From assembly GCA_964383505.1 (NCBI GenBank), contig CAYLHB010000001.1, forward strand, positions 1,232-65,231: a stretch of 64,000 bases of DNA, given 5' to 3'. A model generated the notes under the pieces. That model did no database searches. It saw nothing but the letters and a program-made list of their open reading frames with translations, and was not told the origin of the DNA. Positions within the stretch are counted from its first letter, which is position 1. Every line of letters begins with the position of its first letter. Shown piece after piece: positions 17,416 through 64,000 of the stretch. A program made the translations under genes and the position numbers. The stretch is from an uncultured Candidatus Saccharibacteria bacterium (GTDB taxonomy: Bacteria; Patescibacteriota; Minisyncoccia; Phycocordibacterales; UBA12088).

Positions 17416-17424
17416 TATCGCTTG

Positions 17425-17497
17425 TCCGCCCAGAAGGATTCGAACCTTCGACCCGCGGCTTAAAAGGCCGTTGCTCTACCAGCTGAGCTATGGGCGG
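17425..17497 (-). tRNA. tRNA-Lys (anticodon UUU)
   Basis: Minus-strand sequence CCGCCCATAGCTCAGCTGGTAGAGCAACGGCCTTTTAAGCCGCGGGTCGAAGGTTCGAATCCTTCTGGGCGGA folds as a cloverleaf: acceptor CCGCCCA/TGGGCGG, D-arm GCTC/GAGC, anticodon loop CTTTTAA, T-arm GAAGG-TTCGAATC-CCTTC. CCA is not encoded. Confidence 0.85.
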
Positions 17498-23985: not shown

Positions 23986-25113
23986 ATGGCAACTTGTATG
24001 GAATCGTACGCACGCAGTTCCCGCTACGGCGCGCTCCCAAGCCAAACCCTCCGCGAGCTCGTGACGGCCGGGTTTATAGAACACGCAGACGTAGACAACA
24101 TCGCCCCCTCTTCGCTCGACCTCACGCTCTCCGGAGAGGTGTACTGCACGGAGGGGATGTTTCAGCTCAATCCAGGTGAGTCGGTGCGGGATTTGCTCAC
24201 GCACATCCACGCGACCCCGTGGTCTTTTGAGAAGCCACTCGTGCGCGGAGGAATGTACCTTGCTCGGCTCAATGAAACACTGCGTTTGCCGTCGAGTGTG
24301 TATGGGTACTGCAACCCGAAAAGCTCGACCGGTCGCATTGATGTCCACGTGCGCGTGCTTGCCGATGGGGTGCCGCGGTACGATTCCGTAACACCGGCGG
24401 GGTGGAATGGTGAGCTCTGGATCGCCATTCATCCGAAGTCGTTCCCGATTCTTCTTCGGGAAGGTCACTCACTCTCGCAGCTGCGCCTCTTCACGGCAGA
24501 TACGCGGTTTTCAGAGCTTGAGTTTGAAATCGCACTCTCCCACCATAAGCTTCTATGGCAACGAGGTGGCGATGCGGTGCGGTATGACGAGCTTCGTGTA
24601 TCAGACCATGACGGTGCGCCCATGCTCTCGCTCGACCTTAAAAGCCCGCTGGTCGGGTGGGTGAGTAAACACACTGACCAGGTGCTCGACGTGAGTACGC
24701 GCGGAAGCTATGCACCCGAAGATTTTTTTGAACAGGTGGCACCCGAGAACGGGCACCTCACGCTGGAGCGCGGGAAGTTCTACATTCTCTCGACCGATGA
24801 GGCGGTGCGTGTGCCCCCCGAGCTCGCGTGCGAAATGGCTTCGATGGACGAGCGTTCGGGTGACTTCAGGAGTCACTACGCCGGCTTCATCGACCCGGGT
24901 TGGGGGTGGGGCAAGGAGGGGGAGGAGAAGGGACGACCGCTCACCCTTGAGGTGCGCCCGTTTGAAGACTTAGTGGTGCGGCACGGCCAGCCGATTGCGA
25001 AGATAAAGTTTGAGCGTATGACGCACGTGCCCGATGTGCTCTATGATACACGCGGAAGCAACTACACGACCCAAACGGGACCGAGGCTTGCGAAGCAGTT
25101 TCGTACGGAATGA
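23986..25113 (+). CDS. dcd: dCTP deaminase-like protein, long form (DCD family, ~375 aa, dUTPase-fold)
   Basis: dUTPase/dCTP-deaminase-fold motifs SLDLTLSGEVY, GYCNPKSSTGRIDVHV and GFIDPGWGWG. Length and architecture fit the long DCD family rather than the 190-aa Dcd. Confidence 0.6.
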   Translation: MATCMESYARSSRYGALPSQTLRELVTAGFIEHADVDNIAPSSLDLTLSGEVYCTEGMFQLNPGESVRDLLTHIHATPWSFEKPLVRGGMYLARLNETLRLPSSVYGYCNPKSSTGRIDVHVRVLADGVPRYDSVTPAGWNGELWIAIHPKSFPILLREGHSLSQLRLFTADTRFSELEFEIALSHHKLLWQRGGDAVRYDELRVSDHDGAPMLSLDLKSPLVGWVSKHTDQVLDVSTRGSYAPEDFFEQVAPENGHLTLERGKFYILSTDEAVRVPPELACEMASMDERSGDFRSHYAGFIDPGWGWGKEGEEKGRPLTLEVRPFEDLVVRHGQPIAKIKFERMTHVPDVLYDTRGSNYTTQTGPRLAKQFRTE

Positions 25114-25156
25114 TAGTGCGCTAGGGTGGTGCGAGCGGAAAACGGAGGAGATCCAA

Positions 25157-25270
25157 TGGGTGTATCGGAAAAGCTATTCTGGGCGTTTGCGCTGTGGCCG
25201 CTCATTGCACTTATGGGTGCGATTGTGTGGTTATTTGTGAAGACACGGAATACTAAAGACCGCGACTGAC
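25157..25270 (+). CDS. small hydrophobic protein (37 aa), candidate
   Basis: GGAGG 7 nt upstream of the ATG. Encodes MGVSEKLFWAFALWPLIALMGAIVWLFVKTRNTKDRD (one TM helix). A hairpin terminator follows (AGACCGCGAC-TGAC-GTCGGGGTCTTTT). Confidence 0.3.
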
Positions 25271-25294
25271 GTCGGGGTCTTTTAAAATACTATG

Positions 25295-25624
25295 CTAGTG
25301 CAGTGTCCGATATGCCTTCAGTGCTTGTTGTGCGAGATGTGTCGGGTCGTCCTTCGCTTTAATAGTGCGTTCAGTATCGGTCCACCATGTATCAAACCAT
25401 TCACGCGTGCCGTCGGTAAAAAGTGCGATGAAATCAAGTTCAAACTTAGGATCTTCGCTACTTACCTGGTCGGGTGTGTATTCGGGATGATTGAGGGAAA
25501 CGACCAGTTTAAAAAAACATGCTTGTGTTTGATTACGCAATCCTACAAGTTCCTGTTGAACAAGTTGTTCGTTCTGTTGCAGTGCCAATTGTGCCTCTGA
25601 AACGTGCTCAAGAAATCCAGCCAT
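25295..25624 (-). CDS. hypothetical protein (109 aa), co-transcribed downstream of thyX
   Basis: ORF starts 13 bp after the thyX stop on the same strand. No recognisable motif. Confidence 0.35.
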   Translation of the reverse strand: MAGFLEHVSEAQLALQQNEQLVQQELVGLRNQTQACFFKLVVSLNHPEYTPDQVSSEDPKFELDFIALFTDGTREWFDTWWTDTERTIKAKDDPTHLAQQALKAYRTLH

Positions 25625-25636
25625 AATTAGGTAGTG

Positions 25637-26995
25637 CTATTTTTTCACAATATCCTGCTCGCCACGACCGACATCGAATCGGTCGGAGTCACTCTCCAAG
25701 TGTACCACAAGGCCTTGCTCACGGAATCGCTCGGTGAGCATATGCGCCATTTGCTGCGCGCGTTCGCGCAGGGTGGGGTGGACAAAGCGGGTGGAGCGAA
25801 GCTCCGCGAGATAGACGAGGGCGGGGAGTGTGCCCACGAGGCGATTTGAGGTAAGAAAGCCCATGGCGGTGTAGTACTGGGCGAGTTCAGGAGACATGTT
25901 CTGCTGAGAGATTGCCTCGGTTTGACTACGGATGAGCATCTCCGCCTCACTGCGGAGCGTGTCGGGTAGTTCCGCGAGGTACCACGGATGGAAGCCGAGC
26001 GAGGTGGTGAGAAGTGGCATGCGCTGGCGGACCGCGCGGTGTCGTTGTATGTCGCGGAACGAACCGAAGTCGAGTAAGAACTTGAAGCCGACCATGCCGC
26101 ACTCGCCCATACGGAGCGGGAGCTCGGTTTTGTTGTTGGGACGGGTGCGTAGTGCGTCCTCGTACTCACCAAGAAGCGTGCGATCGATGCCGTCGAAGAA
26201 GAGCTCAAACGTAGGCGAGGCGGAGTCGTGGTAGTAGTACTCGCGCATGCGCGCCGCGTGGTAGGCCTCCGATGCCTCAAAGCGCGTGTTACTGAATGAG
26301 CTTGGGAATGCTTGGAGGAGGGCCTGTTCAGTTGTTTCCGCAATAGCGCGTACCTCTTCGAGAGGGTGGTGGCGCAGGTGGAGGAGTGCGTCAGCGAACT
26401 GTCGGAGGTTCATGGTCCACGCGAGGTTGGTGGTGGCGCCCGCGGGGAGGAAAGAGCGCATGATATCAAATGCGCGGGCGTTGATGGCCTTCTCGTACAA
26501 CGATTCTTTTTCACCTTCAGCGCGCGGGAAGCGTGCCTTGATCACCTCCGGGAGCTCGTGCACGCCCTTGAGGTAGAACGAGCGCCACGCTTCTTGGATG
26601 GCGGTCCCCGCTTCACTTTCGAGCGGATTGAGGAACGGTTGGTCTGCAAAATTCACATACCGCGTGGAGCTCTCCTGTCCAGAGTAGAGCGGCCAGTCTT
26701 GTATCGCTTTGGCAGCGAGCATGGAAACTCCCTCCACGAATACCGTCGCGCTCGCGCAGTCGCCGATCGATTTGTGCCCATAGCCGACGTAGTACGTCGC
26801 CATGAATTTTTCCGCCCCCTTTTCTTTCAGCACCTCAAGGTGGCTCGCGATGCCGCCCGTGGAGCGGCTGTGGAGCGCTTGAAGCATCGCCTGTGCTTCC
26901 GGTGTGATGCGCGCGCCCGTGTTGAGGACGAGAACCCTGCCGCCATTTGGGAGTGGGACTTCAGTGTGGGTGAGAGAGGAAATGTCGCTCGCCAT
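25637..26995 (-). CDS. thyX: FAD-dependent thymidylate synthase ThyX family, tandem-domain form (~450-480 aa; start ambiguous, alternative starts up to 27085)
   Basis: Second repeat carries the ThyX signature FRDIQRHRAVRQ and SNRLVGTLPALVYLAELR. First repeat has TNLAWTMNLRQFADALLHLR (cf. TrFFWTvNaRsLmnFlnLR) and GHKS...SGQESSTRYV, but the RHR is replaced. Confidence 0.65.
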   Translation of the reverse strand: MASDISSLTHTEVPLPNGGRVLVLNTGARITPEAQAMLQALHSRSTGGIASHLEVLKEKGAEKFMATYYVGYGHKSIGDCASATVFVEGVSMLAAKAIQDWPLYSGQESSTRYVNFADQPFLNPLESEAGTAIQEAWRSFYLKGVHELPEVIKARFPRAEGEKESLYEKAINARAFDIMRSFLPAGATTNLAWTMNLRQFADALLHLRHHPLEEVRAIAETTEQALLQAFPSSFSNTRFEASEAYHAARMREYYYHDSASPTFELFFDGIDRTLLGEYEDALRTRPNNKTELPLRMGECGMVGFKFLLDFGSFRDIQRHRAVRQRMPLLTTSLGFHPWYLAELPDTLRSEAEMLIRSQTEAISQQNMSPELAQYYTAMGFLTSNRLVGTLPALVYLAELRSTRFVHPTLRERAQQMAHMLTERFREQGLVVHLESDSDRFDVGRGEQDIVKK

Positions 26996-27020
26996 GTGTG
27001 GAAATGGTACCATGGGTGTC

Positions 27021-27647
27021 ATGCAGGCGCACGGAAGGCTCATAGCGATTGAAGGGGGGGATGGCGCTGGAAAAGACGCGAACATCGACTACCTGCGCGA
27101 GGTATTTGCCGGGCGGGACGATGTGGTATTCACACGCGAGCCGGGCGGTACCGCGATAGGGGAGCGGGTGCGTGCGATTCTCACCGACCCCACACATGCG
27201 GGGATGGCGGTCGAGACGGAGCTCCTGCTTTTCCTGGCGTGTCGGGCTCAGCTCATTGAAGATGTGATACGGCCAGCACTTAGGGAAGGGAAGACGGTTA
27301 TCTCAAACCGATTCGCGCTCTCTACCATCGCATACCAGATCTTTAGGAAGGAGCGCATGGAGTACCTGTCGTTCCTTGAGTCGGTGAGCGCCACACTCCT
27401 CAAAGAGGTGGTCCCGTTCTACGTGCTTCTCGATGTGCCGCCCGAGGTGGGGCACGAGCGGGTGCGGAGTCGCGGGACCACACTATCGCGTTTTGACGCG
27501 GAATCACTTGTCATACATACGCGGGTGCGCGACGGGTACGTGAGCGCCGTGAAGGGGTTTCCGCACGCCGTTGTTGACGCCACGAAACCGCTCGATGAGG
27601 TACGGCGCGAAGTGGAACGTATCGTGCGAGCGCACATGATGTCATGA
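27021..27647 (+). CDS. tmk: thymidylate kinase
   Basis: P-loop IAIEGGDGAGKD, FTREPGGT and LID region. Its stop overlaps the dut start (ATGA). Confidence 0.85.
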   Translation: MQAHGRLIAIEGGDGAGKDANIDYLREVFAGRDDVVFTREPGGTAIGERVRAILTDPTHAGMAVETELLLFLACRAQLIEDVIRPALREGKTVISNRFALSTIAYQIFRKERMEYLSFLESVSATLLKEVVPFYVLLDVPPEVGHERVRSRGTTLSRFDAESLVIHTRVRDGYVSAVKGFPHAVVDATKPLDEVRREVERIVRAHMMS

Positions 27648-28069
27648 GTACGTGCAAAGTGGTCTTACTTGATGAAAGGGCGAAGCCCCCATGCTACGCA
27701 CACCCGGGTGATGCGGGGGCCGATCTCTTTACGCTCGAGACTGTGGAGCTTGTGCCGGGCACGCACGCACAAGTTCACACCGGCATTGCGCTTGAGATTC
27801 CTGATGGCTATGTAGGGCTCATTTGGGACAAGAGTGGTCTCTCACAGAAGTATGGATTAAAGACACTCGGTGGTGTGATAGACAGCGGCTACCGTGGCGA
27901 GGTTTTGGTGGGGCTGGTGAATCTGGGGAATGAGCCACACACAATTACCGCGGGGCAAAAAGTAGCACAAATTCTTATCCAAAAAGTTGAACGTGCGGAG
28001 TTTGTTGAGAGCGACGAGCTCCCGACCTCCGCTCGTGGCACAGGTGGTTTTGGAAGTACGGGCGCGTAA
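27644..28069 (+). CDS. dut: dUTP diphosphatase
   Basis: 141 aa with dUTPase motifs AGADL, GLIWDKSG, GVIDSGYRGEV, and a C-terminal RGTGGFGSTG. Confidence 0.9.
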   Translation: MSTCKVVLLDERAKPPCYAHPGDAGADLFTLETVELVPGTHAQVHTGIALEIPDGYVGLIWDKSGLSQKYGLKTLGGVIDSGYRGEVLVGLVNLGNEPHTITAGQKVAQILIQKVERAEFVESDELPTSARGTGGFGSTGA

Positions 28070-28082
28070 ACAAGTAGGCCCG

Positions 28083-28640
28083 CTAGTCGCGGGCCATGAG
28101 GTGGGGTGGCGGGTATATTTGGATGGTTACGCGCGTGCCGGGTAGTACGCGGGTGGCGAGCGTATCCCAGTCGGCATTGTGCATGCGTATGCATCCGCGT
28201 GATACACGGTGCCCTATTTGGTCGGGGCGAATGGTGCCGTGGATGCGAACGGTGGAAGGGATACATGACTCCCAACGCACACCCACTTTTCTCCCCCCGA
28301 GCGCGTTTTTTGGATGTCCAGGTGCGTAGTAGCTCGAAAGCGGTTGTCCTTTTTGTGCCGCTGCACGCTTTGTTGCCTCGGTGGGTATCCACGCCGCATG
28401 TGGGTCGATGAAGGTGACTATTCCCGTGACGGGCCCGCTGTAGAGGCATCGTGGCGTATGACGAGGCGTGGCGATAGGGTATGTGGCGATGAGGGTATTT
28501 CCATCAACGACGTACAGTTGCGGCGTATCGCTACCAGTTCCCAATATAATGTGAAGTTCGACCTCCGCATGAGCAGGGGCGGTCAGTACGAGCCATACAC
28601 ACGCCGCGAGAAGTGAAATGAGCGACTGGACATGACGCAT
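28083..28640 (-). CDS. L,D-transpeptidase (YkuD domain) with signal peptide
   Basis: Signal peptide MRHVQSLISLLAACVWLVLTAPAHA. Catalytic motif HGT...SRGCIRMHNAD. Confidence 0.8.
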   Translation of the reverse strand: MRHVQSLISLLAACVWLVLTAPAHAEVELHIILGTGSDTPQLYVVDGNTLIATYPIATPRHTPRCLYSGPVTGIVTFIDPHAAWIPTEATKRAAAQKGQPLSSYYAPGHPKNALGGRKVGVRWESCIPSTVRIHGTIRPDQIGHRVSRGCIRMHNADWDTLATRVLPGTRVTIQIYPPPHLMARD

Positions 28641-28970: not shown

Positions 28971-30236
28971 ATGGAATACTCATGTACCAAACAGCAAGAT
29001 GAAGAAGTGTTCAGTGCCCTTGAGGGCGAGGAGCGTCGCGAAGCAGAAGGGCTTGAGCTCATTCCCAGTGAAAACTACGTCTCACGGGCGGTGCGTGAGG
29101 CCTTGGGGTCGGTTGTGACTAACAAATATTCCGAGGGCTATCCAGGTAAGCGCTACTACGGGGGGCAGGAGTACACCGATGCCTTGGAAACGCTCGCGAT
29201 TGAGCGGGCGAAGAAGCTCTTTGGAGCCGCATACGTGAACGTGCAACCGCTCTCCGGTGCTCCCGCGAACATCGCTACGTACTTCGCGGTCCTCGAGCCC
29301 GGGGATACGGTGCTCGGCATGGACCTCTCGCATGGGGGGCACCTCACGCACGGGCACCCGGTCACGATGATGACGAAGGTATTCCGTTTCGTGCGCTACA
29401 AGATGAAGAACGCGGAGACGGGCGAGATAGACTACGACGAAATGCGCGAGGTGGCGAAAAGGGAAAAGCCGAAGCTCATCCTCGCAGGGTTCTCCGCGTA
29501 CTCGCGCGAGCTCGATTACGAGCAGTTTGTCGCGATAGGGAAGGAGGTTGGGGCGTACACCATGGCGGATGTTGCACACATAGCGGGCTTGATCGCAGGC
29601 AAGGCTGCGAAAAACCCATTCGATGCGGGGTTTGACCTCATGACGACGACTACCCACAAGACCCTACGCGGGCCACGTGGCGGTATGGTTTTGGTGCGTG
29701 AGAGTGCGGAGATTGCAAAAAAGGTAGACAAGGCGGTGTTTCCTGGGCTACAGGGAGGGCCGCACATGAACCAGGTGGCCGCGAAGGCGGTGTGCTTTGG
29801 CGAGGCACTCCAACCTTCGTTTCGCACCTACGCAGGGCAGATTCTCGTAAACGCGAAAGCGATGGAGCGCGTGTTGCGTGCGCGCGGAGTGAGGATGCTC
29901 GGTGGGGGCACGGACAACCACCTCATTTTGGCGGATGTGTACGGCTCGCTCGGCGTGTCGGGTAAAGAGGCAGAGACGGTGCTCGACAGTGTGGGTATCA
30001 CACTAAATAAGAATGTCATTGCGGACGACCCGCGCCCCCCACTCGACCCCTCGGGAATTCGTTTTGGCACACCCGCGCTCACAACCCGAGGTTTTACGGA
30101 ACAGGATTGCGCTCGTGTGGCGGAACTCATGCTGGATGCACTGCAGTGTAGTGGAGATGTGACAAAGCTTGAGACCATTCGAGAGGAGGTGTGCTCACTC
30201 GCACAGAGCCACCCGGTGCCGGAAAGTTTTGTGTAG
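28971..30236 (+). CDS. glyA: serine hydroxymethyltransferase
   Basis: LELIPSENYVS, GYPGKRYYGG, and the PLP-Lys region TTTTHKTLRGPRGG. Confidence 0.9.
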   Translation: MEYSCTKQQDEEVFSALEGEERREAEGLELIPSENYVSRAVREALGSVVTNKYSEGYPGKRYYGGQEYTDALETLAIERAKKLFGAAYVNVQPLSGAPANIATYFAVLEPGDTVLGMDLSHGGHLTHGHPVTMMTKVFRFVRYKMKNAETGEIDYDEMREVAKREKPKLILAGFSAYSRELDYEQFVAIGKEVGAYTMADVAHIAGLIAGKAAKNPFDAGFDLMTTTTHKTLRGPRGGMVLVRESAEIAKKVDKAVFPGLQGGPHMNQVAAKAVCFGEALQPSFRTYAGQILVNAKAMERVLRARGVRMLGGGTDNHLILADVYGSLGVSGKEAETVLDSVGITLNKNVIADDPRPPLDPSGIRFGTPALTTRGFTEQDCARVAELMLDALQCSGDVTKLETIREEVCSLAQSHPVPESFV

Positions 30237-62418: not shown

Positions 62419-62929
62419 TTCCCAGCATACTACCTATACAACACCCACACACAGCCATTCTTTCTTCGCACAGGGCACATGCGTGTGCATTGAAGCGGAG
62501 ACGGAATGACCGAAACGGAAGGGCGGCCGAACATTGACAACTCCATAGGTCCCGGTAGGTGCGCAAGCGCCTAGTGCGGGACGCGGGTACGCTTGAAAGC
62601 AGAGGTGCTTTCAAGCGTGAAAAAGCATACACCTGTCCGGTAGCGTTAGCGTTTAGCGCGCCGGACACAGTCGAGTCCCACAGAAGCGACGCCCCCAATG
62701 CGGTGGTGGCCTTGCGTACAGTGCGGTATGGCAACATGCTGCGGTGCTATAGTGGGTTCGACATTGTTAGATTTCCCGACAGGAAATCTAAGGGCATACG
62801 GTGGATGCCTTGGCTTGAAGAGGCGATGAAGGACGTGGTACGACTGCGATAAGCTTCGGGGAGGTGTCTAGCAACCTTTGATCCGGAGATGTCCGAATGG
62901 GGAAACCCCCTATGACAAACTCATAGGAT

Positions 62930-63022
62930 CCGGCACTTTCTAAGAATCTGTATAAAACACAACAGGAGTACTCCTAAAAGGAAACTTGCTGTGAAAAGAA
63001 TCGGAGTTTTAGAAAGTGCCGG
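62930..63022 (+). repeat. 23S insertion 1 (helix 9/10 region), ~93 nt, closed by CCGGCACUUUCUAA / UUAGAAAGUGCCGG
   Basis: Absent from the canonical 23S core. Its terminal inverted repeat is shared with insertions 2 and 3. Confidence 0.6.
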
Positions 63023-63169
63023 AAGCAGACCCAGGGAATTGAAACATCTTAGTACCTGGTGGAAAAGAGACCAATAACGGATTTTTTGCCGTGGCGGCGT
63101 CCATTGCCGGTACGGTAAAAAATCCAGGCATTTCCTGAGTAGCGGCGAGCGAAACGGAAGGAGCCCAAA

Positions 63170-63267
63170 CCCAGCACTTTCTAAGTGTCTAACATAGAAC
63201 TACACGGATCCTTATGGTGATACGGCGTCTGTGTTGTAAAATGTTGGATATTGAGAAAGTGCTGGGG
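63170..63267 (+). repeat. 23S insertion 2, ~98 nt, closed by CCCAGCACUUUCUAA / UUGAGAAAGUGCUGGG
   Basis: Same GCACUUUCUA/AGAAAGUGC closing stem. Lies between AGCCCAAACC and GGGUUGUAGGGCGG. Confidence 0.6.
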
Positions 63268-63471
63268 GTTGTAGGGCGGTAGCGTCGGCAACGAGGAGAG
63301 TCATAAAATGTGTTTGTTAGCGGAACGCTCTGGAAAGGGCGGCCCCAGCGGGTAACAGCCCCGTACGCGAAAACGAACACGTCTCTCTTACTACCGTTCC
63401 TGAGTAGCGCGGGACACGAATAGCCTGCGTGAATCCGGGTGCACTAACACCCAAGGCTAAATACTCTTCAA

Positions 63472-63517
<46 letters not shown>

Positions 63518-63567
63518 GGGAGGGGAGTGAAATAGAACTGAAACCGTATGCTTACAAGGAGTCGGAG

Positions 63568-63664
63568 CCCCGCACTTTCTAGAACTTGAGTGGCACACTG
63601 AGCTCAAGAATGGAGAAGGTATCTGTTGCGTGCAGAACCTGTTTGAGTTTTAGAAAGTGCGGGG
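63568..63664 (+). repeat. 23S insertion 3 (helix 25 region), ~97 nt, closed by CCCCGCACUUUCUAG / UUAGAAAGUGCGGGG
   Basis: Located where helix 25 IVSs occur in other bacteria (between AGUCGGAGC and GUGACGGCGUGCCUAUUGAAGAAUGAGCCGGCGAG). Same closing stem as the other two. Confidence 0.6.
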
Positions 63665-64000
63665 TGACGGCGTGCCTATTGAAGAATGAGCCGGCGAGTT
63701 TACGCACGTGGCTATGGCTAAGGGGCGACCCCCGGAGCCGCAGCGAAAGCGAGTCTGAATAGGGCGATTCAGTCGCGCGCGTAAGACCCGAATCGAGGTG
63801 AGCTTACCATGAGCAGGGTGAAGCGGCTGTAACAGGCCGTGGAGGCCCGAACCGGTTCGCAGTGCGACACGATCGGATGACTTGTGGTAAGGAGTGAAAA
63901 GCTAATCGAACCTCGTAATAGCTGGTTCTCTCCGAAATAGCTTTAGGGCTAGCGTCATATGTTCCCTTTGGGGGTAGAGCACTGGAAGGTCTGAATAGGG

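Follow-up and report, generated by a model that had tools for sequence, protein, structure and literature searches.

The window examined here (the whole stretch of DNA analysed, 64 kb) comes from an uncultivated Patescibacteria (CPR) bacterium and holds a thymidine-nucleotide gene cluster of an ordinary kind, in which dcd, thyX, tmk and dut lie together and are followed by glyA (Table 1). The 375-aa product of dcd had been described in an earlier note as a dCTP deaminase of the long type, and our searches agree: it matches DCD_N (PF06559; 128.3 bits against a Pfam gathering score of 21.4) and DCD_C (PF22569; 144.1 against 22), Pfam DCD also matches in two stretches, and residues 34-375 align with residues 33-370 of the 370-residue chain of PDB 2R9Q (E = 1.4e-56), a near-full-length homolog deposited as 2'-deoxycytidine 5'-triphosphate deaminase. 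The protein differs from the long-form family in its score against the NCBIfam equivalog PRK07559, which spans residues 11-374 and, at 269.4 bits, falls narrowly below the cut-off of 283; we therefore regard it as a diverged member. Compared by eye with E. coli Dcd, the N domain presumably keeps the K-S-S-x-G-R phosphate-binding motif, while the DPG and catalytic Glu motifs, which we take to be missing from the N domain, appear only in the C domain (AGFIDPGWG ... LTLEV).

The thymidylate kinase and dUTPase reported in the same 4 kb both score above their family cut-offs. The tmk product, which carries the P-loop GGDGAGK, reaches 130.7 bits against TIGR00041 (cut-off 83.25) and 129.9 bits against Pfam Thymidylate_kin, and the dut product reaches 136.2 bits against TIGR00576 (cut-off 102.55) and 136.1 bits against NF001862 (cut-off 103). 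The tmk stop and the dut start overlap by 4 nt (ATGA). Serine hydroxymethyltransferase (SHMT), previously placed about 1 kb downstream, begins 901 bp past the end of dut, the two being separated by an oppositely oriented YkuD gene, and its product matches the SHMT profile (PF00464) over positions 2-398 of 399. The 109-aa ORF that follows thyX has no match in Pfam; the closest relative (L001) carries a 113-aa gene at the same position after thyX, with 32% identity by tblastn.

Table 1. Genes, domains and sites of the thymidine-nucleotide cluster, in window coordinates.
Feature	Position	Strand	Basis or remark
dcd, long-form two-domain dCTP deaminase, 375 aa	23986..25113	+	DCD_N, DCD_C, 2R9Q
Small conserved ORF, 109 aa	25295..25624	-	Directly downstream of thyX
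thyX, tandem two-domain flavin-dependent thymidylate synthase homolog, 452 aa from M31	25637..26995	-	Pfam Thy1, homologs
ThyX C-terminal domain, aa 236-452, strongly diverged ThyX fold (predicted) with RHR	25640..26290	-	
R400 (ELR), uracil-binding Arg, putative equivalent of Mtb Arg199 / T. maritima Arg174	25796..25798	-	137/138 conserved
R318-H319-R320, sole RHR of the ThyX chain, C domain	26036..26044	-	Codons verified
ThyX N-terminal domain, aa 1-235, without RHR	26291..26995	-	Pfam Thy1 positions 25-190 of 191
S110-T111-R112-Y113, retained dUMP-binding loop, N domain	26657..26668	-	Equivalent to Mtb Ser105, Arg107, Tyr108
D100-W101-P102, N-domain residues at the RHR position	26690..26698	-	Alignment to solved ThyX; codons verified
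tmk, dTMP kinase, 208 aa	27021..27647	+	TIGR00041, Pfam Thymidylate_kin
7-nt G run	27054..27060	+	Inside tmk; not intergenic
dut, trimeric-type dUTPase, 141 aa	27644..28069	+	TIGR00576, NF001862
glyA, serine hydroxymethyltransferase, CH2-THF supplier	28971..30236	+	Pfam SHMT 493.8 bits

This neighbourhood recurs beyond chance, as the same genes are found around thyX in relatives. At two related loci (L001 and L003) a tandem thyX is flanked by dcd, tmk, dut and glyA. Among 45 related loci with full flanks, the tandem thyX has at least one of these four genes within 4 kb at 26 and at least two at 15, and SHMT itself is this close at 17. Taken as a unit, the neighbourhood would serve the de novo synthesis of dTTP precursors: the long-form Dcd would deaminate dCTP to dUTP, Dut would hydrolyse dUTP to dUMP, ThyX would methylate dUMP to dTMP using CH2-THF from the nearby SHMT, and Tmk would phosphorylate dTMP. 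The inventory of thymidylate synthases on which this scheme draws was read within the 64-kb window and is a statement about that stretch rather than about genome-wide content.

The thyX frame extends at most from 25637 to 27085 on the reverse strand (482 aa), and initiation at M31 (ATG at 26995) yields 452 aa, within the range of about 450-480 aa first estimated. In an alignment of 37 homologs, most begin no more than a few residues from M31 and a few have longer N-terminal extensions; the N-terminus is thus less uncertain than had been supposed. No Shine-Dalgarno-like sequence is visible upstream of this ATG, and a promoter and terminator consensus scan returned nothing above the shuffled expectation and no site in the gap between thyX and tmk. 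Taking 27021 as the tmk start leaves 25 bp between the two divergent starts, as the earlier note had calculated; an alternative ATG for tmk is present at 27012. The run of 8-9 G residues said to sit between the two starts is in fact a run of 7 that begins 59 nt beyond the thyX start, outside the gap, and forms the Gly-Gly codons of the tmk P-loop (IEGGDGAGK). We rejected the run as a mark of a frameshift-prone or uncertain thyX start.

The ThyX homolog had been described as two Thy1-like repeats. Pfam finds one Thy1 (PF02511) match, at residues 77-261 of the 482-aa ORF (76 bits, cut-off 24.8) and confined to the N-terminal domain, which aligns with C. glutamicum ThyX (3GE9) such that QDWPLYSGQESSTRY stands opposite VRHRHFSFSQLSQRF. 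The C-terminal 190 aa have no Thy1 match in Pfam even at E<=10, a profile built of C halves retrieved nothing from PDB sequences at E<=10, and the score against the NCBIfam equivalog TIGR02170 (36.9 bits) is far below its cut-off of 87.9. An AF2 model of the single chain (pLDDT 88, pTM 0.88) is confident across the domain junction. Foldseek of the full model did not distinguish which domain was aligned, and because it gave no domain assignment the C half was modelled on its own; the predicted structures have a ThyX fold in each half, placing two ThyX domains in one polypeptide. Profile-profile comparison of the two halves gave no significant alignment with 38 close homologs (E = 0.15) and only E = 2.3e-3 with 138 more diverse sequences. 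Two folds in one chain are therefore what structure prediction establishes, and an internal repeat is unproven from sequence alone, its second member being seen only in the predicted structure.

Tandem ThyX proteins are numerous. Homologs with a length of about 450 aa number over 4500, 797 clusters at 50% identity match with E<=1e-30, and at least 587 species genomes of GTDB carry the tandem form; labels at the best 80 genome loci with a tandem thyX are mostly Patescibacteria. When a remote member (P0265) was used as the query, the names retrieved were again mostly from CPR, with one record labelled Candidatus Electrothrix. Where these proteins are named they are called FAD-dependent thymidylate synthase or ThyX; some are labelled hypothetical. 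Chlamydial ThyX, which we take to be about 530 aa long, might also be of the tandem type. The family is large and under strong purifying selection. That the long frame is an assembly or frameshift artefact joining two neighbouring genes can be rejected: thousands of independent metagenomic and MAG sequences share one uninterrupted frame of about 450 aa, and the AF2 model is confident where the two domains meet. The phrase "unusual enzyme forms", which had been applied to both proteins, was an overstatement: the long DCD belongs to a family already known and represented by a crystal structure (2R9Q), and tandem ThyX is common in the lineage.

To interpret the two domains it is useful to recall how canonical ThyX is built. 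In the homotetramer each active site is formed by three subunits: the RHR motif and the Arg that binds uracil come from subunit A, the FAD phosphates are held by two residues of subunit B (the serine of GH.S and the arginine of N-x-R), and dUMP is bound by the S-x-R-Y loop of subunit C (PMC6514825, section 3.1). In the tandem protein this residue set is present over the chain as a whole and is split between the domains. The peptides quoted in the earlier note are all there (QDWPLY at the RHR position of the N domain, TNLAWTMNLRQFADALLHLR, and FRDIQRHR in the C-terminal half), and no single domain holds a contiguous RHRxxSxxxxSxRY: the N domain reads DWPLYSGQESSTRY, without RHR, and the C domain RHRAVRQRMPLL, without S..S.RY, so that RHR and S-x-R-Y are 218 residues apart on different ThyX domains. 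Of these motifs, GH.S, S-T-R-Y and N-L-R survive in the N domain; RHR and a terminal LR survive in the C domain, from which the GH.S serine, the N-x-R arginine and the dUMP loop are missing. In Mtb numbering, the RHR and Arg199 are supplied by R318-H319-R320 and R400 of the C domain, and Ser71, Arg190, Ser105, Arg107 and Tyr108 by S76, R198, S110, R112 and Y113 of the N domain. The C-domain equivalences are suggested by a weak HMM-HMM alignment, in which ELR400 pairs with HLR208 in the N domain and with the GMR of the C. glutamicum enzyme, and by the secondary-structure register. The equivalent of Mtb Arg87 in the N domain is Met92, for which the invariant R314, one helical turn before the C-domain RHR, may substitute.

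Conservation, counted over 138 family representatives at 50% identity, follows the same division. The residues of role A are near-invariant in the C domain (R318 and R320 in 138/138; H319 in 123/138, with Gln in 14) and absent or relaxed in the N domain, where RHR occurs at the variable D100-W101-P102 position in 0/138 and R208 is kept in only 39/138. Those of roles B and C are highly conserved in the N domain (S76, S110 and R112 in 138/138, Y113 in 133/138, R198 in only 112/138), and the C domain offers no equivalent of them. Degeneration affects both halves, in a complementary manner. The picture of one degenerate and one canonical half is therefore incorrect: the supposedly canonical C-terminal repeat has RHR and the later LR and no S..S.RY loop, each half has lost different residues, and it is the C domain that the Pfam and PDB profiles miss. 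Overall, the observations of the earlier note were confirmed in part, and its interpretation receives partial support.

Because the C domain could take only role A and the N domain only roles B and C, we infer a homodimer of the 452-aa chain. This dimer would be a pseudo-tetramer with two complete FAD/dUMP sites and two fully dead ones, each complete site being made of the C domain of one chain and both N domains. The tandem itself would go back to an old duplication within the gene, after which the two domains lost complementary sets of residues. How the two domains sit relative to each other, and with it the composite site, is read from residue patterns; whether the enzyme is active, how it oligomerises and how many of its sites are live are likewise matters of prediction. 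We lean, if only slightly, towards the view that the Patescibacteria-type tandem ThyX is a natural subfunctionalised enzyme whose domains split the roles and whose homodimer has exactly two live and two dead sites.

The model of the earlier note, in which the C-terminal RHR domain is the sole catalytic half and the N domain an inert scaffold or regulatory pseudo-domain, would fit the confinement of RHR, the family signature, to the C domain. We consider it improbable, as the canonical site requires all three residue sets (PMC6514825) and the C domain has neither the S-x-R-Y dUMP loop nor the GH.S serine nor the N-x-R arginine, besides being too diverged for Pfam and PDB profiles. Moreover, the N domain keeps the missing residues across 138 diverse sequences, which is unexpected for an inert scaffold. 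Herpesvirus dUTPases are monomeric and mimic a trimer, and by analogy the fused ThyX chain might be a monomer with a single intramolecular site; the well-defined two-domain unit implied by the pTM of 0.88 would suit this arrangement. It is nevertheless very improbable, given that the canonical site draws on three subunits (PMC6514825) while each chain offers one N-type domain for roles B and C and 452 aa contain no third repeat. It also seems unlikely that the tandem protein is a ThyX-fold paralog with changed substrate or chemistry (a UMP/dCMP or other nucleotide methylase like PolB), with dTMP made by a gene elsewhere: the invariant residues are those that bind dUMP and FAD in canonical ThyX, the recurrent linkage is to dut, tmk, dcd and glyA, which cover the steps around dUMP-to-dTMP conversion and the supply of the methylene donor, and the tandem family is near-universal in these small genomes. 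Overall, the cluster pathway together with a tandem ThyX acting as a composite-site homodimer is the best explanation of the data as a whole, with a probability of about two in three.

Compared with canonical ThyX (PF02511, TIGR02170, EC 2.1.1.148; T. maritima TM0449, M. tuberculosis 2AF6 and PBCV-1 4FZB), the tandem protein shares the predicted fold in both halves, the motifs RHR, S-x-R-Y, GH.S, N-x-R and terminal LR over the whole chain, and the pathway context of SHMT, dut and tmk. Whereas the canonical enzyme is a single-domain chain of 200-250 aa whose homotetramer has four identical sites of three subunits each, the tandem protein has 452 aa in two non-identical domains, neither with the full motif, lies far under the TIGR02170 cut-off, and would be expected to assemble as a dimer with two sites. 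Engineered ThyX heterotetramers, the work of Leduc et al. (PNAS, 2004), reportedly mapped the active site to a three-monomer interface. As in those heterotetramers, the tandem site would be assembled from subunits missing different subsets of residues; the engineered proteins were artificial mixtures of mutants, whereas complementation in tandem ThyX would be natural, fused and conserved across a phylum-level lineage. In the searchable literature we found a single passing remark on tandem, fused or duplicated ThyX, by Valas and Bourne in 2009, on a duplicated ThyX in "a few species" of non-Dehalococcoides Chloroflexi (PMC3224940), and neither experimental work on any member of a tandem subfamily nor a description of ThyX domains sharing out the three-subunit site. 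By that paper's description the Chloroflexi protein has the same kind of architecture, but the family described here is far larger and centred on Patescibacteria.

For annotation, the locus is a routine dTTP-precursor cluster whose two supposedly unusual enzymes belong to families already in databases, and neither the cluster nor the tandem ThyX opens a new biological category. Curated equivalog models miss the tandem subfamily, which appears to be a common form of thymidylate synthase in a very large lineage of uncultivated bacteria. The pattern of its residues points to a pseudo-tetramer with only half of its sites populated. If confirmed, this would give the mixed-mutant experiments by which the ThyX active site was located a counterpart in nature, and would be a clean case of complementary degeneration after domain duplication. 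Such an enzyme would offer a ready-made asymmetric system in which to dissect the cooperation of ThyX subunits and, because the composition of its site differs from that of pathogen enzymes, would be relevant to the design of ThyX inhibitors.

The product of thyX is, by structure prediction, two ThyX-fold domains in tandem, the second of them strongly diverged (N domain, aa 1-235; C domain, aa 236-452, counted from Met31 of the ORF). The two Thy1 domains claimed in an earlier note, made from the sequence alone, are seen in the predicted structure, which contains two ThyX folds, and not by Pfam, which matches the N-terminal part only. The note had named a failure of profile searches to find two Thy1 domains as grounds for refutation, and on that count sequence profiles speak against the tandem. 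No Thy1 match was obtained in the C-terminal 190 aa even at E<=10, a profile of C halves matched none of the PDB sequences, and a first profile comparison of N against C halves was not significant. In the full-chain predicted structure (pLDDT 88, pTM 0.88) the order of secondary-structure elements appears twice, and the C half modelled alone (pLDDT 90.6) gave 156 Foldseek matches at E<=0.001 (best 7e-8), all 50 of the 50 listed belonging to the ThyX family. Together, the match of the C-half model to ThyX structures and the repeated element order argue for a tandem of two ThyX folds. Once the alignment was deepened, the profiles of the two halves could be aligned weakly (E 2.3e-3), placing HLR208 of the N domain opposite ELR400 of the C domain and N-domain NLR198 opposite C-domain TLP.

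A canonical ThyX active site is assembled from three subunits (PMC6514825, section 3.1). In Mtb numbering, one subunit (role A) contributes RHR (95-97) and Arg199; Ser71 and Arg190 of a second (role B) bind the FAD phosphates, and Arg87, Ser105, Arg107 and Tyr108 of a third (role C) bind dUMP (PMC6514825). Alignment of the N domain to C. glutamicum ThyX identified S76 of its GHKS motif as the equivalent of Ser71, S110-T-R112-Y113 as that of Ser105/Arg107/Tyr108 and R198 of NLR198 as that of Arg190, with D100-W101-P102 at the RHR position. The C domain is without an S-x-R-Y loop, a GH.S or an N-x-R motif; its R318-H319-R320 is modelled at the same helix-to-strand connection, and the weak N/C profile alignment makes R400 of ELR400 the equivalent of Arg199.

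Conservation of these residues was assessed in the window protein and 137 representatives of 50%-identity clusters (n=138). S76, S110 and R112 of the N domain are each present in 138/138, Y113 in 133 and R198 in 112; RHR occurs in the N domain of none of the 138 proteins, its three positions being variable, and R208, the N-domain equivalent of Arg199, is retained in just 39. Of the C-domain residues, R314, R318 and R320 are each found in all 138 sequences, R400 in 137 and H319 in 123 (with Gln in 14 others). This pattern points to selection that is confined to the C domain for role A residues and to the N domain for those of roles B and C, and so to complementary degeneration. The earlier note had pictured one dead half and one canonical half, a view that gives way here to two halves degenerate in complementary ways.

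In a D2 tetramer, each subunit would play roles A, B and C in three different sites, and each site would omit the fourth subunit. If two diagonal positions were occupied by C-type domains and the other two by N-type domains, the two C-anchored sites would be complete and no role would be filled at the two N-anchored sites. As a homodimer, the 452-aa chain would then form a pseudo-tetramer, two of its sites live and the other two dead, and would hold about one FAD per chain; we infer this assembly from the distribution of conserved residues. A monomer could not build a canonical site by itself, since B and C are roles of different subunits.

The low TIGR02170 score of the tandem ThyX and the presence of PolB among its fold matches could be taken to suggest a changed substrate, a reading to which we assign a low probability. 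Given its dTTP-precursor neighborhood and invariant substrate-binding residues, the protein would most likely be a working thymidylate synthase. The genes named in the earlier note were confirmed by the ORF list and profile searches (see table), and the peptides that it quoted (QDWPLY, TNLAWTMNLRQFADALLHLR and FRDIQRHR) were all found in the window translation. These genes would cover all steps from dCTP to dTDP as well as the methylene donor: Dcd would yield dUTP and Dut dUMP, ThyX would use CH2-THF from serine hydroxymethyltransferase (SHMT) to form dTMP, and Tmk would yield dTDP. The tmk stop is overlapped by the dut start (ATGA).

Features of the window, with profile matches
Feature	Position	Strand	Profile match
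tRNA-Lys (TTT)	17424-17497	-	
dcd, 375-aa protein	23986-25113	+	Pfam DCD_N 128 bits, DCD_C 144 bits
109-aa ORF	25295-25624	-	no Pfam match
thyX ORF, up to 482 aa	25637-27085	-	one Pfam Thy1 match, 76 bits
tmk, dTMP kinase	27021-27647	+	TIGR00041 130.7 bits (cut-off 83.25)
dut, dUTPase	27644-28069	+	TIGR00576 136.2 bits (cut-off 102.55)
YkuD L,D-transpeptidase gene	28083-28640	-	
SHMT gene	28971-30236	+	494 bits
Isoleucyl-tRNA-synthetase-like protein, 1160 aa	33223-36705	+	His_Phos_1, aa 510-675, 101 bits
23S rRNA gene, from its start	62778-64000	+	

The gene cluster is ordinary for the lineage. At the locus of the closest relative (L001, 74% identity) the tandem thyX is flanked by dcd, tmk, dut and SHMT, and in a related locus on a 746-kb contig (L003) dcd, tmk and dut form an operon that runs divergently from thyX, SHMT lying a short way downstream of thyX. 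Of 45 GTDB-species loci whose 4-kb flanks are complete, 26 have at least one of dcd, tmk, dut and SHMT near the tandem thyX, 15 at least two and 7 at least three. The 109-aa ORF lies directly downstream of thyX and may be its co-transcribed partner; a 113-aa gene in the same place after thyX in L001 (7419-7760) has 32% identity to it.

Homologs number more than 4500, are about 450 aa long and span just 93-94% of the 482-aa ORF, and the N-termini of most of 37 aligned homologs match Met31 (ATG 26995, minus strand), a few extending further; by such comparison, the thyX protein is predicted to be 452 aa long. The most plausible tmk start is at 27021 (MQAHGRLIAIEGGDGAGK), with an alternative ATG at 27012. 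As the earlier note said, the divergent starts are then 25 bp apart (26996-27020); the corresponding gap in L001 is 26 bp, and tmk and thyX diverge across a short gap in other loci as well. The note had also placed a G run of 8-9 bp between the starts and regarded the N-terminus of ThyX as uncertain on that ground. The run comprises 7 G (27054-27060) and codes for both glycines in the Tmk P-loop; lying within tmk, it says nothing about where thyX starts. Neither a consensus promoter nor a Shine-Dalgarno sequence is visible in the 25-bp gap, which suggests leaderless mRNAs or promoters inside the opposite coding sequence.

The 375-aa Dcd, which the earlier note had counted as an unusual enzyme form, belongs to the known long-form DCD family as an ordinary member that has diverged somewhat. 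Besides containing DCD_N and DCD_C, it can be matched along almost its entire length to PDB 2R9Q (370 aa), a structure deposited as 2'-deoxycytidine 5'-triphosphate deaminase (E 1.4e-56; aa 34-375 to chain residues 33-370), and it scores 269 bits against NCBIfam PRK07559, narrowly below the 283 cut-off. The 375-aa protein, too, consists of two dUTPase-like barrels in tandem. By comparison with E. coli Dcd, we take the DPG and catalytic Glu motifs (AGFIDPGWG...LTLEV) to be confined to the C-terminal barrel and the N-terminal barrel to keep only the K-S-S-x-G-R phosphate motif. Both oligomeric enzymes of the pathway would then be fused duplicates that have partly degenerated.

Elsewhere in the window, a histidine phosphatase domain (His_Phos_1) interrupts the isoleucyl-tRNA-synthetase-like protein between the two parts of its class I catalytic domain, an unusual insertion in an aminoacyl-tRNA synthetase. 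The 23S rRNA gene covers model positions 1-928 over 1223 nt, indicating about 300 nt of inserted sequence in its 5' third, and no 16S gene lies upstream of it within the window; this pattern agrees with CPR bacteria, in which rRNA genes are unlinked and bear insertions. The tRNA-Lys gene is the only tRNA gene in the 64 kb, and GC content is 0.46-0.50 near 16-22 kb and 44-46 kb versus about 0.56 in the rest.

The tandem ThyX family is large: 2835 cluster representatives (50% identity) match it at E<=1e-3, and the stricter limit of E<=1e-30 leaves 797. Most of the best 150 representatives are 430-500 aa long with near-full-length matches; about a dozen are shorter and match the profile in part. 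Chlamydial ThyX, at about 530 aa, is likewise long. At least 587 GTDB species genomes encode a tandem thyX, and the best 80 of these are MAGs, mostly labelled Patescibacteria (Kaiserbacteria, Moraniibacteriota, Uhrbacteria, Paceibacterota etc.). Ten loci (L010, L036, L047, L048, L054, L055, L066, L078, L080 and L083) carry a Patescibacteria-type thyX at 56-62% identity on contigs titled, for example, delta proteobacterium, Bdellovibrionales, Burkholderiales, Gammaproteobacteria or Micavibrio; probably, these taxonomic labels of public MAGs are in error or the bins are contaminated. One protein record is labelled Candidatus Electrothrix.

Homologs are named 'FAD-dependent thymidylate synthase', 'thymidylate synthase ThyX' or, occasionally, 'hypothetical protein' in the databases. 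In the searchable literature, a duplicated ThyX is mentioned only by Valas and Bourne (2009, PMC3224940), who remark that ThyX of non-Dehalococcoides Chloroflexi has a domain duplication and 'has not been characterized'; no description of a complementary active-site split of ThyX was found in that literature. The tandem ThyX is a member of an already catalogued, experimentally untouched subfamily, and the earlier note was largely right in what it observed and partly right in how it interpreted this. The only part that seems new is the residue-level reading, in which each dimer would hold two composite sites, and this amounts to a prediction that can be put to the test, not to the finding of a system of a new kind.
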